Below are positions 191 to 37,817 of a stretch of 42,499 bases of DNA, piece by piece. The stretch lies in sequence record OZ418230.1; one strand, 5' to 3'. The translations under genes were made by a program, and so were the position numbers. Positions within the stretch are counted from its first letter, which is position 1. Each line of letters starts with the position of its first letter. The DNA is from a phage. The notes beneath the pieces were generated by a model. It saw only the letters and a list, made by a program, of their open reading frames with translations. It ran no database searches and was not told the DNA's origin.

Positions 191-710
191 ATGGAAGTCA
201 ACAAAAAGCAGCTGGCTGACATTTTCGGTGCGAGTATCCGTACCATTCAGAACTGGCAGGAACAGGGAATGCCCGTTCTGCGAGGCGGTGGCAAGGGTAA
301 TGAGGTGCTTTATGACTCTGCCGCCGTCATAAAATGGTATGCCGAAAGGGATTCTGAAATTGAGAACGAAAAGCTGCGCCGGGAGGTTGAAGAACTGCGG
401 CAGGCCAGCGAGGCAGATCTCCAGCCAGGAACTATTGAGTACGAACGCCATCGACTTACGCGTGCGCAGGCCGACGCACAGGAACTGAAGAATGCCAGAG
501 ACTCCGCTGAAGTGGTGGAAACCGCATTCTGTACTTTCGTGCTGTCGCGGATCGCAGGTGAAATTGCCAGTATTCTCGACGGGATCCCCCTGTCGGTGCA
601 GCGGCGTTTTCCGGAACTGGAAAACCGACATGTTGATTTCCTGAAACGGGATATCATCAAAGCCATGAACAAAGCAGCCGCGCTGGATGAACTGATACCG
701 GGGTTGCTGA

Positions 711-736
<26 letters not shown>
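191..736 (+). CDS. nu1: terminase small subunit
   Basis: 181-aa ORF, translation matches lambda Nu1 (MEVNKKQLADIFGASIRTIQNWQEQGMPV...) from memory; first gene after cos. Confidence 0.95.
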
Positions 737-4417
<3,681 letters not shown>

Positions 4418-31256: not shown

Positions 31257-32156
31257 ATGACAAATACAGCAAAAATACTCAACTTCGGCAGAGGTAACTT
31301 TGCCGGACAGGAGCGTAATGTGGCAGATCTCGATGATGGTTACGCCAGACTATCAAATATGCTGCTTGAGGCTTATTCGGGCGCAGATCTGACCAAGCGA
31401 CAGTTTAAAGTGCTGCTTGCCATTCTGCGTAAAACCTATGGGTGGAATAAACCAATGGACAGAATCACCGATTCTCAACTTAGCGAGATTACAAAGTTAC
31501 CTGTCAAACGGTGCAATGAAGCCAAGTTAGAACTCGTCAGAATGAATATTATCAAGCAGCAAGGCGGCATGTTTGGACCAAACAAAAACATCTCAGAATG
31601 GTGCATCCCTCAAAACGAGGGAAAATCCCCTAAAACGAGGGATAAAACATCCCTCAAATTGGGGGATTGCTATCCCTCAAAACAGGGGGACACAAAAGAC
31701 ACTATTACAAAAGAAAAAAGAAAAGATTATTCGTCCGAGAATTCTGGCGAATCCTCTGACCAGCCAGAAAACGATCTTTCTGTGGTTAAACCGGATGCTG
31801 CAATTCAGAGCGGCAGTAAGTGGGGAACAGCAGAAGACCTGACCGCCGCAGAGTGGATGTTTGACATGGTGAAGACCATCGCGCCATCAGCCAGAAAACC
31901 GAATTTTGCTGGGTGGGCTAACGATATCCGCCTGATGCGTGAACGTGACGGACGTAACCACCGCGATATGTGTGTGCTTTTCCGCTGGGCCTGCCAGGAC
32001 AACTTCTGGTCCGGTAACGTGCTGAGTCCGGCCAAACTCCGCGACAAGTGGACCCAGCTCGAAATCAACCGTAACAAGCAACAGGCTGGCGTGACAGCCG
32101 GAAAACCAAAACTCGACCTGACAAACACTGACTGGATTTACGGGGTGGATCTATGA
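31257..32156 (+). CDS. O: replication initiator O
   Basis: 299 aa, near-identical to lambda O. Confidence 0.95.
   Translation: MTNTAKILNFGRGNFAGQERNVADLDDGYARLSNMLLEAYSGADLTKRQFKVLLAILRKTYGWNKPMDRITDSQLSEITKLPVKRCNEAKLELVRMNIIKQQGGMFGPNKNISEWCIPQNEGKSPKTRDKTSLKLGDCYPSKQGDTKDTITKEKRKDYSSENSGESSDQPENDLSVVKPDAAIQSGSKWGTAEDLTAAEWMFDMVKTIAPSARKPNFAGWANDIRLMRERDGRNHRDMCVLFRWACQDNFWSGNVLSPAKLRDKWTQLEINRNKQQAGVTAGKPKLDLTNTDWIYGVDL
31605..31730. other. origin of replication: four ~18-20 bp iterons plus adjacent AT-rich region inside O
   Basis: Repeats of the form atccctcaaaacgaggga (four copies, 31605..31690) followed by an A/T-rich tract. Confidence 0.85.
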
Positions 32157-32854
32157 AAAACATCGCCGCACAGATGGTTAACTTTGACCGTGAGCAGATG
32201 CGTCGGATCGCCAACAACATGCCGGAACAGTACGACGAAAAGCCACAGGTACAGCAGGTAGCGCAGATCATCAACGGTGTGTTCAGCCAGTTACTGGCAA
32301 CTTTCCCGGCGAGCCTGGCTAACCGTGACCAGAACGAACTGAACGAAATCCGCCGCCAGTGGGTTCTGGCTTTCCGGGAAAACGGGATCACCACAATGGA
32401 ACAGGTTAACGCAGGAATGCGCGTAGCCCGTCGGCAGAATCGACCATTTCTGCCATCACCCGGGCAGTTTGTTGCATGGTGCCGGGAAGAAGCATCCGTT
32501 ATCGCCGGACTGCCAAACGTCAGCGAGCTGGTTGATATGGTTTACGAGTATTGCCGGAAGCGAGGCCTGTATCCGGATGCGGAGTCTTATCCGTGGAAAT
32601 CAAATGCGCACTACTGGCTGGTTACCAACCTGTATCAGAACATGCGGGCCAATGCGCTTACTGATGCGGAATTACGCCGTAAGGCCGCAGATGAGCTTGT
32701 CCATATGACTGCGAGAATTAACCGTGGTGAGGCGATCCCTGAACCAGTAAAACAACTTCCTGTCATGGGCGGTAGACCTCTAAATCGTGCACAGGCTCTG
32801 GCGAAGATCGCAGAAATCAAAGCGAAGTTCGGACTGAAAGGAGCAACTGTATGA
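32153..32854 (+). CDS. P: replication protein P (DnaB helicase loader)
   Basis: 233 aa, lambda P. Confidence 0.95.
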   Translation: MKNIAAQMVNFDREQMRRIANNMPEQYDEKPQVQQVAQIINGVFSQLLATFPASLANRDQNELNEIRRQWVLAFRENGITTMEQVNAGMRVARRQNRPFLPSPGQFVAWCREEASVIAGLPNVSELVDMVYEYCRKRGLYPDAESYPWKSNAHYWLVTNLYQNMRANALTDAELRRKAADELVHMTARINRGEAIPEPVKQLPVMGGRPLNRAQALAKIAEIKAKFGLKGATV

Positions 32855-33141
32855 CGGGCAAAGAGGCAATTATTCATTACCTGGGGACGCATAATAGCTT
32901 CTGTGCGCCGGACGTTGCCGCGCTAACAGGCGCAACAGTAACCAGCATAAATCAGGCCGCGGCTAAAATGGCACGGGCAGGTCTTCTGGTTATCGAAGGT
33001 AAGGTCTGGCGAACGGTGTATTACCGGTTTGCTACCAGGGAAGAACGGGAAGGAAAGATGAGCACGAACCTGATTTTCAAGGAGTGTCGCCAGAGTGCCG
33101 CGATGAAACGGGTATTGGCGGTATATGGAGTTAAAAGATGA
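32851..33141 (+). CDS. ren: Ren
   Basis: 96 aa, matches lambda Ren. Confidence 0.9.
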   Translation: MTGKEAIIHYLGTHNSFCAPDVAALTGATVTSINQAAAKMARAGLLVIEGKVWRTVYYRFATREEREGKMSTNLIFKECRQSAAMKRVLAVYGVKR

Positions 33142-34179: not shown

Positions 34180-34352
34180 GGCGACAGCGACGAAGTTTCA
34201 CCGACATCATCTGCGAAAACTGCAAATACCTTCCAACGAAACGCTCCAGAAATAAACGCAAGCCAATCCCAAAAGAATCTGACGTAAAAACCTTCAATTA
34301 CACAGCTCACCTGTGGGATATCCGGTGGCTAAGATATCGTGCGAGGAAATGA
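34176..34352 (+). CDS. ninE: NinE
   Basis: 58 aa [58 protein letters not shown], lambda/DLP12 NinE; ATGA overlap with the methyltransferase. Confidence 0.8.
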
Positions 34353-34696
34353 CAATGGATTATTCACAGTTAAGTGATTTTGAAATTAACAGAATGGTAG
34401 GAGACATAATTTTTAAAGGCCTTTGGGCAAGTAAACCGGAAACATCAGGGAATAACACCAACAAATGGTATTACGGAAATGCTGATACAACTTTTGAGCC
34501 ATTAAATCATTTGCCTGACTACTGCAATGATCCGAGCGCTTCATGGCCGATTATTGAGAAATACAGGATTTCTATCTTAGACCAGTTAACTGAATGGTGT
34601 GTGGATGCAAAAGGCGTAAGCCCAATATTTGATACCAGACCTCTCCGCGCCGCCATTATTGTCTTTCTCCTGATGCAGGAGGCCAATAATGCTTAG
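34349..34696 (+). CDS. hypothetical nin-region protein
   Basis: 115 aa from MTMDYSQ…; ATGA overlap with ninE; no confident family. Confidence 0.5.
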
Positions 34697-34883
34697 CCCA
34701 TCTCAATCCCTTCAATACCTGAAAGGAAGCATAGAGCGGGCTTCAATGTGCACAGAGTGGATTCTATCTAGGTTTAGCGCATACAGAAGATTGCCGGTAA
34801 AGGGCATGCCAAGCAAGTCGATGCTGCATATGCAAAAGAATGCGCGCGGGAAGGTATGGCGAGAACGCAGGTTATCTGGCTGA
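34689..34883 (+). pseudogene. ninF-like 5' fragment fused to unrelated sequence (chimeric ORF)
   Basis: First ~18 codons ([18 protein letters not shown]) match lambda NinF; downstream the product diverges and the NinF CxxC…CxxC cysteines are missing. Confidence 0.5.
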
Positions 34884-34906
34884 AAGAGGGGGTAATTAAG
34901 GCGTGA
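34778..34906 (+). pseudogene. 3' remnant of a ybcO-like (DUF1364) gene, no start codon
   Basis: Alternative frame reads …[31 protein letters not shown], matching the C-terminus of DLP12 YbcO from memory; bounded upstream by TAG stops; its stop overlaps the rusA GTG. Confidence 0.5.
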
Positions 34907-35265
34907 ATACTTACCACATCACACTACCCTGGCCTCCGAGCAATAATCGCTATTATCGCCATAATCGCGGGCGCACGCACGTCAGCGCAGAGGGGCAGGC
35001 ATACCGCGATAACGTCGCCCGAATCATTAAAAACGCAATGCTGGATATCGGCCTGGCGATGCCTGTGAAAATCCGCATTGAGTGCCACATGCCGGATCGC
35101 CGTCGCCGTGACCTGGATAATCTGCAAAAAGCCGCTTTTGACGCACTCACCAAAGCAGGTTTCTGGCTGGATGATGCTCAGGTCGTTGATTACCGCGTTG
35201 TGAAGATGCCTGTTACCAAAGGTGGGAGGCTGGAATTGACCATCACCGAAATGGGGAATGAATGA
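34903..35265 (+). CDS. rusA: RusA Holliday-junction resolvase
   Basis: 120 aa, GTG start, near-identical to DLP12 RusA (…[34 protein letters not shown]…). Confidence 0.9.
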
Positions 35266-35402
35266 TGTTTGAGTTTTATATGGCAGAACGTCTTCGCCAC
35301 CGCTGGGTGCGTCTGCGCTTATATCGTTTCCCCGGTTCTGTTTTGACCGATTACCGAATACTGAAGAATTACGCCAAAACACTGACAGGAGCAGGAGTAT
35401 GA
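35262..35402 (+). CDS. ylcG: YlcG small protein
   Basis: Manual translation gives 46-aa [46 protein letters not shown], as DLP12 YlcG; overlaps rusA stop. Confidence 0.7.
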
Positions 35403-35487
35403 AGTCAGAGATAACAATCAACTAATACTGTTTTGCTGATTTTTGCTTGTAATTGGCGTTCTGGTCTGATTTTTGTGGAGTAAGTTG

Positions 35488-35921: not shown

Positions 35922-35963
35922 CGCAACGTAGTTATGATCATATAACAGCTTGTTCCCTGATTT

Positions 35964-35993
35964 AGCCAGCCTCCCCAAAGGCTGGTTTTTTTT
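35964..35993 (+). terminator. tR'-like rho-independent terminator downstream of Q
   Basis: Stem ccagcc/ggctgg with 8-nt loop followed by TTTTTTTT. Confidence 0.7.
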
Positions 35994-36021
35994 CTAATAA
36001 GTATCAATCCGGTTAGGTATT

Positions 36022-36546
36022 TTATTGTTTGACCCATAATAGTTCATTGACATTGAATCCCAATTTTTGAGCAGTACGCACATAGTCTGCTTTTACATTA
36101 TCTGGAATAGTTGGAGTCCGTGCCAGAATCCATAGGTATTCTCTGTTCGGACCACTGACAAGAGCATACTTATACTCATCATCCAGTTTGATTACATTAT
36201 AGCCACCATAGAAGGGGCCAAAAAACGAAACCTTCAACGCTGCAGTTGTATTATCTCCTGTAAAGTATGCTTTACCTTCGCTCTCGCTCCATTTGTTTTT
36301 CGTTGGGTCATATCCACGATTAAGTACACTAATCCCTCCGTCGTTCCGTTTCCCATAAGTGGCGCTGACCTGTTCCAGACCACGTTCAAATCGGTTCTCA
36401 AGCCGAGCTATTTCATACCATTTTCCGAGGTAGCGGTTGGTGTCAAAATTTGTAATCGGCTGCACACCTTTAGGTGGTGTCGGGGCCTTACATGCTATCA
36501 GAGTGAAAGAGAGTGCAATGCCAGTCAACACAGGCCATAACTTCAT
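36022..36546 (-). CDS. Blc-like outer-membrane lipocalin lipoprotein
   Basis: 174 aa with lipobox (LIAC) and strong similarity to E. coli Blc (…YLGKWYEIARLENRFERGLE…KVSFFGPFYGGYNVI…). Confidence 0.8.
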   Translation of the reverse strand: MKLWPVLTGIALSFTLIACKAPTPPKGVQPITNFDTNRYLGKWYEIARLENRFERGLEQVSATYGKRNDGGISVLNRGYDPTKNKWSESEGKAYFTGDNTTAALKVSFFGPFYGGYNVIKLDDEYKYALVSGPNREYLWILARTPTIPDNVKADYVRTAQKLGFNVNELLWVKQ

Positions 36547-36895
36547 AATATATCCTGTACTTTTGATAGTTGAGAGTAAGTATTAAAGATAGATGATTAC
36601 TACCGATCACCTAAAGAACTTTCCTACTATATTAGGAATAGTCCATAACAAAAAAATTGTCAGTGATGACGGCAGAAAGGCAGTTTAGGTCGTGTACTAC
36701 ACTGTTAACCTGTTAATGAATTAGTCAAGGGGTAGGCAATGATAAAAAAACCTGTCGTTGGGATCAGTGGTTGTTTGGCCGGTTCTTCTGTCCGTTTTGA
36801 TGGTGGTCACAAAAGAGCTAGCTTTTTAATGGACAAATTACTGGAATGGGTAACATTCAAACCAGTATGTCCGGAAATGGCTATAGGGCTTCCAG

Positions 36896-36900
36896 TTCCG
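36896..36900. repeat. IS2 target-site duplication, left copy (ttccg)
   Basis: Identical 5-mer directly flanks both IS2 ends. Confidence 0.85.
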
Positions 36901-36911
36901 TGGATTTGCCC

Positions 36912-37817
36912 CTATATTTCCAGACACCTGTTATCACTTAACCCATCACTGGCCCACTGCCGCAGATATTCCCGTGGCGAGCGATAACCCAGCGCACTAT
37001 GCGGATGCCATTCGTTATAATGCTCGAACGCCTCTGCAAGGTTCTTTGCTGCCGTTAACCCGTCTGGTTTGGGCATGATACTGATGTAGTCACGCTTTAT
37101 CGTTTTCACGAAGCTCTCTGCTATTCCGTTACTCTCCGGACTCCGCACTGCCGTGTTCTTCGGTTCAAGTCCCAACATCCTGGCGAACTGACGTGTTTCA
37201 TTCGCCCGGTAGCATGAACCATTATCCGTCAGCCACTCCACTGGAGACGCCGGAAGCTCGCTGCCAAAGCGGCGTTCCACTGCTCCCAGCATGACGTCCT
37301 GTACTGTTTCACTGTCGAAGCCACCCGTTGTGACCGCCCAGTGCAGTGCCTCACGGTCACAGCAGTCCAGCGCGAACGTGACCCGCAGTTTTTCTCCGTT
37401 ATCACAGCGGAACTCAAACCCGTCAGAGCACCATCGCTGATTACTTTCTTTCACAGCCACTCTGCCGGTATGTGCCCGTTTCGATGGCGGTACAGCGGGT
37501 TTTCGCTCAAGCAACAGCGCATTCTGGCGCATGATCCGGTAAACACGTTTGGCATTGATCGCAGGCATACCATCAAGTTCTGTTTGTCTGCGAAGCAGCG
37601 CCCATACCCGACGATAACCATATGTGGGTAGCTCTCCGATAACATGGTGTATACGGCGAAGCACATCCGTATCATCCGTGTGACGGCTGCGGCGGCCGTC
37701 CTTCCAGTCATCGGCTCGTCTGAGAATGACGTGCAACTGCGCACGCGACACCCGGAGACAACGGCTGACGAAGCTTACTCCCCATCCCCGGGCAATAAGG
37801 GCGCGTGCGCTATCCAC
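36912..37817 (-). CDS. insD: IS2 transposase OrfB (InsD)
   Basis: 301 aa, matches IS2 InsD. Confidence 0.9.

Follow-up and report, generated by a model that had tools for sequence, protein, structure and literature searches.

A three-part recombination scar between ninX and rusA in the nin region of a lambda-like phage

INTRODUCTION

How did the DNA between ninX and rusA in a lambda-like temperate phage genome come to carry the start of one gene and the end of another, and does any part of it still work as a gene? The nin region is known for gene shuffling (PMC4118853). The question is raised by OZ418230.1, a stretch of 42,499 nt that is called the window here. In an original prediction, positions 34689-34906 of the window had been read as the trace of an exchange between a lambda-type and an 82/DLP12-type nin module, with one breakpoint and two non-functional fragments. 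We find that this segment is very likely a non-coding remnant, left by two or more illegitimate recombination events in the lambdoid nin region, and that it consists of three parts rather than two.

RESULTS

Anatomy of the locus

The gene order of the region and the features of the scar are listed below; the division of 34689-34906 into three parts derives from blastn and Smith-Waterman alignments.

32153-32854: P, the first nin-region gene in the listed order
32851-33141: ren, after P
to 33655: ninB, after ren
to 34179: Dam-type methyltransferase gene, after ninB
to 34352: ninE, after the Dam-type methyltransferase gene
34355-34696, plus strand: ninX, intact (Pfam Phage_P22_NinX, PF10765, 58.8 bits)
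34677-34682, plus strand: AGGAGG Shine-Dalgarno sequence inside the 3' end of ninX, 6 nt upstream of the ORF64 ATG
34689-34883, plus strand: ORF64, a chimeric ORF of 64 codons made of a ninF 5' end, filler and out-of-frame ybcO 3' DNA
34689-34751, plus strand: P22-type ninF 5' remnant of 21 codons (88.9% identity to ninF of P22, HK and Sf101)
34752-34816, plus strand: filler of 65 nt and of third origin, matching neither ninF nor ybcO
34817-34906, plus strand: ybcO (DUF1364) 3' remnant, codons 68-96 and the stop, a start-less pseudogene
34819-34823, plus strand: CGATG microhomology at the site of the second junction, from a three-way alignment
34886-34892, plus strand: GAGGGGG, a Shine-Dalgarno-like motif for rusA within the ybcO remnant, as read from the sequence
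34903-35265, plus strand: rusA, intact, starting with GTG and encoding a Holliday-junction resolvase (Pfam RusA, 82 bits)
35262-35402, plus strand: ylcG, intact (NCBIfam NF033498, 77.7 bits)
to 35865: Q of the 82/DLP12 type, after ylcG

Over the 1,151 nt tested (34300-35450), the window is 100% identical to Escherichia phages 1H12 and Lambda_2E9 and to several Lambda_ev isolates, and in the records of the identical phages the ninX counterpart is annotated as NinX/DUF2591.

Some observations concern the neighboring region downstream of Q. An IS2 element (ORF 36912-37817, minus strand; NCBIfam "IS2 transposase TnpB," 695.8 bits) lies within 36739-37817 and appears to split a YbgA/COG1683-like moron gene, which is an intact CDS of 960 nt in 1H12, while here the ORF from 36739 has 82 codons and then gives way to IS sequence. 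Between Q and the lysis genes, 36022-36546 (minus strand) holds a moron for a lipocalin Blc-like lipoprotein, called "Lipocalin Blc" in 1H12, and related phages carry an OmpD/OmpC porin gene in its place. Just downstream of Q, 35951-35994 (plus strand) gives a weak match to the Rfam family "Betaproteobacteria_toxic_sRNA" (26.2 bits, gathering score 50, E = 0.024), which sits where the late promoter/terminator region is expected and is probably due to chance.

The left part is the head of a P22-type ninF

The first 63 nt of the scar (34689-34751) align to P22-type ninF at 88.9% identity (E = 7e-14), in alignments that run on from the 3' end of ninX and, by blastn as well as by Smith-Waterman, all stop at 34751. 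The first 22 residues of ORF64 are identical to the N-terminus of P22 NinF at 16 positions (BLASTP), whereas lambda NinF begins differently (VIDQNRSYEQ) and lambda ninF matches only 34723-34751. The NinF-like start of the original prediction is thus confirmed, but its assignment to lambda is not: judging from these alignments, the head is of the P22/HK type that is linked to ninX.

ORF64 resembles the NinF of P22 and lambda (PF05810) in its first 21 codons, which are of the P22 type, in its ribosome site and in the way it overlaps the stop of ninX upstream. It lies directly after ninX, the stop codon of which (TAG, 34694-34696) overlaps its start (ATG at 34689), and AGGAGG at 34677-34682 would be the native ninF ribosome site, which ribosomes may still use. 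What it lacks is the Cys-rich core (C-x2-C ... C-x2-CC, P22 residues 20-44) and the acidic tail. ORF64 falls outside the NinF domain family, giving no match at E <= 1 to the Pfam profile PF05810 (25 Cys-rich positions; gathering score, 27.5 bits); the control, P22 NinF, reaches 50.4 bits with the Cys-rich core at residues 20-44. Of the cysteines in this core, which the original prediction had described as lacking, only the first, Cys21, is retained.

The right part is the tail of ybcO and leads into an intact rusA

The frame ending at 34906 is identical to residues 68-96 of DLP12 YbcO at 27 of 29 positions. A YbcO C-terminus had been proposed for 34778-34906, but the ybcO-derived part comprises only 34817-34906, which at the DNA level is 96.7% identical to phage ybcO and 93.3% identical to that of K-12 DLP12 (E = 5e-34, far beyond chance). 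All ybcO matches, including those to Klebsiella phage alleles of 80% identity, begin at 34817. Upstream, the frame is closed by TAG codons at 34769-71 and 34775-77, and its sole canonical start, the ATG at 34856 with no ATG, GTG or TTG before it, would give a product of 16 aa. The TGA of the remnant (34904-34906) and the GTG of rusA (34903) overlap precisely as they do in DLP12. Both the start-less frame and the stop overlapping rusA had been predicted correctly.

Relative to the YbcO of DLP12 and phage 82 (DUF1364, PF07102), the remnant keeps the last 29 residues, the stop and the GTGA overlap with rusA, while the start codon and residues 1-67 are missing. It therefore has neither a full-length YbcO/DUF1364 domain nor a start codon with the N-terminal Cys/His region, and it covers only profile positions 62-92 of 92 in Pfam YbcO (PF07102; 19.1 bits, cutoff 29.9), compared with positions 2-92 and 144.8 bits for the DLP12 YbcO control. 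DUF1364, including YbcO (PDB 3G27), belongs to the His-Me finger superfamily, and its active site has been predicted (PMC5714182). All Cys and His residues of YbcO except one lie within residues 1-67. RefSeq PGAP already treats these 90 nt as a pseudogene, under the name [quoted passage not shown] Because a start is lacking and the N-terminal 67 residues are absent, we regard the ybcO piece as a dead pseudogene, and its lack of function, as originally proposed, is well supported.

Similarity to K-12 DLP12 extends over 34817-35450 at 97%, spanning rusA and ylcG. The RusA translation is full length by its Pfam domain (PF05866; 82 bits over residues 9-114) and contains D70, D72 and D91, which we take to be the catalytic residues. 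The order rusA-ylcG-Q (82 type) is shared with the DLP12/phage 82 nin module (ninE-ybcO-rusA-ylcG-quuD); before ybcO codon 68 the two differ, with dam-ninE-ninX-ninF' here and ybcN-ninE-ybcO 5' there. The proposed exchange of modules is thus right in its kind, a recombination scar, and in the 82/DLP12 type of the ybcO-rusA-ylcG-Q side, whereas the other side is of the ninE-ninX-ninF type. The GAGGGGG motif lies 3 nt past the ORF64 stop and 10 nt upstream of the rusA GTG, and if it acts as the rusA Shine-Dalgarno sequence, rusA would have kept its own site and would remain expressible. In E. coli 118UI (NZ_CP032515.1; 1415-2618 of the extracted locus), the scar is followed by a rusA that is cut by an IS3-family insertion, indicating that the module is still decaying in some prophages.

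The filler is shared with a cassette of Stx1-converting phages

The 65 nt between these two parts match neither. Smith-Waterman alignments of the filler to the rest of ninF and to ninG (P22, lambda) and to ninE and 5' ybcO (DLP12, PhiR70_1) score no better than shuffled sequence, and a diverged or frameshifted piece of ninF, ninG, ninE or 5' ybcO was rejected on that ground. The only other context in which we found the filler is that of the Stx1-converting phages SH2026Stx1 and AU6Stx1 and of EHEC prophages (type B). The filler together with the 29 nt to its left (34723-34823) is 87-88% identical to SH2026Stx1/AU6Stx1 over 101 nt, with 13 differences per 101 nt that are evenly spread.

The same ninF-5'/filler junction thus occurs in both contexts, and the surroundings differ. 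Type B has ninE, a lambda-type ninF 5' end (frame NRSYEQESVERASVYTEWILSRLSAYRRLLVKDMPGK...) directly after it, a cassette, the ninF 3' end and ninG, with no ybcO or rusA; its filler runs into the cassette of 2.8 kb. Homology of type B to lambda breaks off at the same point as the ninF homology in the window, and on the right side it returns near the very end of ninF, over the last ~21 nt (...EEEGDG*), and goes on into the start of ninG. In SH2026Stx1, the cassette (at about 293-3127 of MG986485.1 18600-25500) is ~2.8 kb long, has 34% GC and contains a reverse-strand ORF of 590 aa (751-2523) with unannotated function as well as a long TTTCTA tandem repeat array at about 2845-2945. From this layout, a foreign AT-rich cassette appears to have replaced the ninF core in type B, with the filler as its leftmost ~72 nt. 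Since the searches for a source of the filler found no parent, its reading as the left edge of a cassette draws on a single further context. Just to the left of the junction, both the window and type B have CTTCA and TGT where P22 and lambda have CTTTA and CGT, and these shared derived changes argue for a single origin of the ninF/filler joint.

Type B loci show changes of their own. In most copies, the ninF-like frame has decayed further, by loss of the start (GTG to GTA) and/or a CAA to TAA change at codon 4, and four IMG/VR type B contigs hold an intact ninF-like frame of 51 codons. In SH2026Stx1 (3141-3765 of MG986485.1 18600-25500), a "putative HNH endonuclease" of 189 aa opens with the NinG N-terminus MAKPARRRC, and homology to lambda ninG returns only at 3766, an arrangement that suggests insertion of an HNH gene into the 5' end of ninG or its fusion with that end.

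Two junctions instead of one breakpoint

Homology to ninF ends abruptly at 34751 and homology to ybcO begins abruptly at 34817, placing the first junction at 34751/34752 and the second at 34817-34823, with the filler between them. At the second joint, the sequence is ...GGCAAAACGATGAGG in type B, ...ATTTTGTCGATGCTG in ybcO and ...AGCAAGTCGATGCTG in the window; short homology, for which the original prediction had suggested a check, is indeed found here, as CGATG (34819-34823) is common to all three.

The one breakpoint that had been placed at 34745-34780 does not survive this alignment. One crossover at about 34745-34780, between ninF of the lambda type and ybcO of the DLP12 type, would account for the presence of both fragments and for their adjacency, but 34752-34816 fits neither parent, the filler is common to Stx1 phages that have no ybcO there, and the 5' end is of the P22 type instead of the lambda type. 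We consider such a single crossover very unlikely. A filler of third origin that is shared with the Stx1 cassette implies at least two successive events and not one ninF x ybcO exchange.

Distribution of the scar

Among 5,426 complete E. coli genomes, 584 match over at least 80% of 34689-34906. By blastn, the filler is present in 835 of the 5,426, of which ~585 are of the scar type and 250 of the cassette type (EHEC type). The scar-bearing share is about 11%, and 568 of the ~585 are at >=99% identity. Furthermore, 27 phage records carry the scar, with 34735-34830 being 100% identical. Since these 27 records and the ~585 E. coli genomes, each completed independently, have the identical junction, we can dismiss the possibility that sequencing or assembly produced it artificially in the window.

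A scan of IMG/VR with a 25-nt filler pattern returned 116 contigs, all in the two known contexts and with strict pairing: 78 combine a P22-type 5' end with ybcO on the 3' side, 36 combine a lambda-type 5' end with the cassette, and mixed pairs do not occur. Searches of 50,697 phage records by blastn (distant mode) and by tblastn gave no third context of the filler, nor did blastn against the 5,426 complete E. coli genomes. In 185,579 species genomes, an 18-mer scan likewise gave none, matching one E. coli contig and one Bacteroidia MAG, the latter taken as a chance match. Among phage records, E. coli genomes, IMG/VR and species genomes, then, we did not find a source of the filler or cassette outside ninF. 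Our literature search on ninF/ybcO/rusA found no paper describing the scar.

ORF64 is probably a nonfunctional fragment

With its native AGGAGG site in place and its start still overlapping the stop of ninX, ORF64 is probably translated. This could be taken to mean that it is a real expressed small protein, be it a new NinF variant or a newborn chimeric gene, that is kept for a function of its own, such as that of a basic peptide, or as a ribosome relay from ninX to rusA. Its position is compatible with a relay: the ORF64 stop lies 20 nt before the rusA GTG, and some translational coupling may therefore survive. ORF64 is also the sole frame that is open across the filler in both contexts, it is named "protein ninF" in some RefSeq/nr records, and of its 67 copies in IMG/VR all but one are intact. 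The exception has an in-frame duplication of 18 nt; in this scar-bearing contig, the tandem duplication (CAATCCCTT x2 extra) falls in the ninF remnant at ~34705-34722 and leads to an ORF of 70 aa.

The sequence relationships of ORF64 speak against such a protein. It matches no Pfam or NCBIfam family, and the NinF domain is absent, which leaves the label "protein ninF" unjustified. Its last third is ybcO DNA in the wrong frame. In a search of 5.8 billion sequences, its homologues amount to 11 near-identical protein clusters, all from E. coli, and several of these are frameshifted to unrelated tails, with one shifted into the YbcO frame. A real protein family, of which ORF64 would be a full-length member, was rejected on these grounds. 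In most type B copies, the equivalent frame is start-less or bears a stop. Variants among the 43 unique scar sequences from IMG/VR look neutral, with 12 nonsynonymous and 5 synonymous changes in ORF64 compared with 36 and 49 in ninX plus rusA; this contrast is marginal (Fisher's P = 0.06) and suggestive of relaxed constraint. The intactness of ORF64 is what one would expect by default at 98-100% identity. On balance, we think it very unlikely that ORF64 is a functional small protein or relay. If it were, a relay would stand in for the lost natural coupling of ybcO and rusA, and a functional ORF64 would explain why a single, near-invariant scar allele is found in about 11% of complete E. coli genomes. 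Most likely, the peptide is without a function of its own, so that of the two fragments first described as nonfunctional, the ybcO piece is well supported as such and ORF64 is probable but not proven.

The filler itself might instead be a functional noncoding element that is kept in two contexts, for example because a protein binds to it or because its RNA is structured. This reading would fit the 87-88% identity across the contexts and the invariance of the filler in 568 of ~585 scar genomes and in the 43 unique IMG/VR sequences, an invariance that is partly an ascertainment effect, as the IMG/VR loci were picked by the 25-nt filler pattern. Against it, the differences between the contexts are spread evenly, and no Rfam family, promoter-like site or terminator-like site was found within 34689-34906, on which basis an RNA or regulatory element in the scar was rejected. 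Invariance of the filler and intactness of ORF64 both fit a young, recently spread allele, although they may also reflect constraint. A functional filler is, in our estimate, highly improbable.

DISCUSSION

The evidence favors a history of at least two illegitimate events, for which we propose the following course. In the first, the Cys-rich core of an ancestral ninF (codon 22 to about codon 52) would have been swapped for a foreign AT-rich cassette; the product of this event would survive in Stx1-converting phages as ninE, ninF 5' end, cassette, last 6 codons of ninF and ninG. In the second, the cassette, 72 nt from its left edge, would have been joined at CGATG to codon 68 of the ybcO of an 82/DLP12-type module, with the loss of the cassette and of ybcO codons 1-67. 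The outcome would be the arrangement seen here, in which 21 codons from the start of ninF are joined through 65 nt of the cassette edge to the final 29 codons of ybcO, and an intact rusA comes next. With its ribosome site retained, the ninF start probably drives a chimeric peptide of 64 residues, in which the ybcO DNA is read out of frame. The ninF/filler joint is probably the older of the two and the filler/ybcO joint the later one, an order that we infer from parsimony.

In lambdoid phages, similarity switches abruptly between lineages at "novel joints" where little or no sequence is shared. The scar shows the same abrupt switches at points with little or no common sequence and is ordinary lambdoid mosaicism, with a ybcO pseudogene that is already annotated in hundreds of genomes. 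It differs in that the joints here lie inside genes and not at their boundaries, and visible gene fragments are left as a consequence. No new mechanism is implied. The label "protein ninF" on ORF64 should not be propagated, a matter of little import beyond annotation. For this group of phages, the scar means that a nested pair of illegitimate joints, including one at a microhomology of 5 nt, links a P22/HK-type nin module, a cassette of Stx1 phages and an 82/DLP12-type rusA module, and it could act as a lineage marker for this prophage family.
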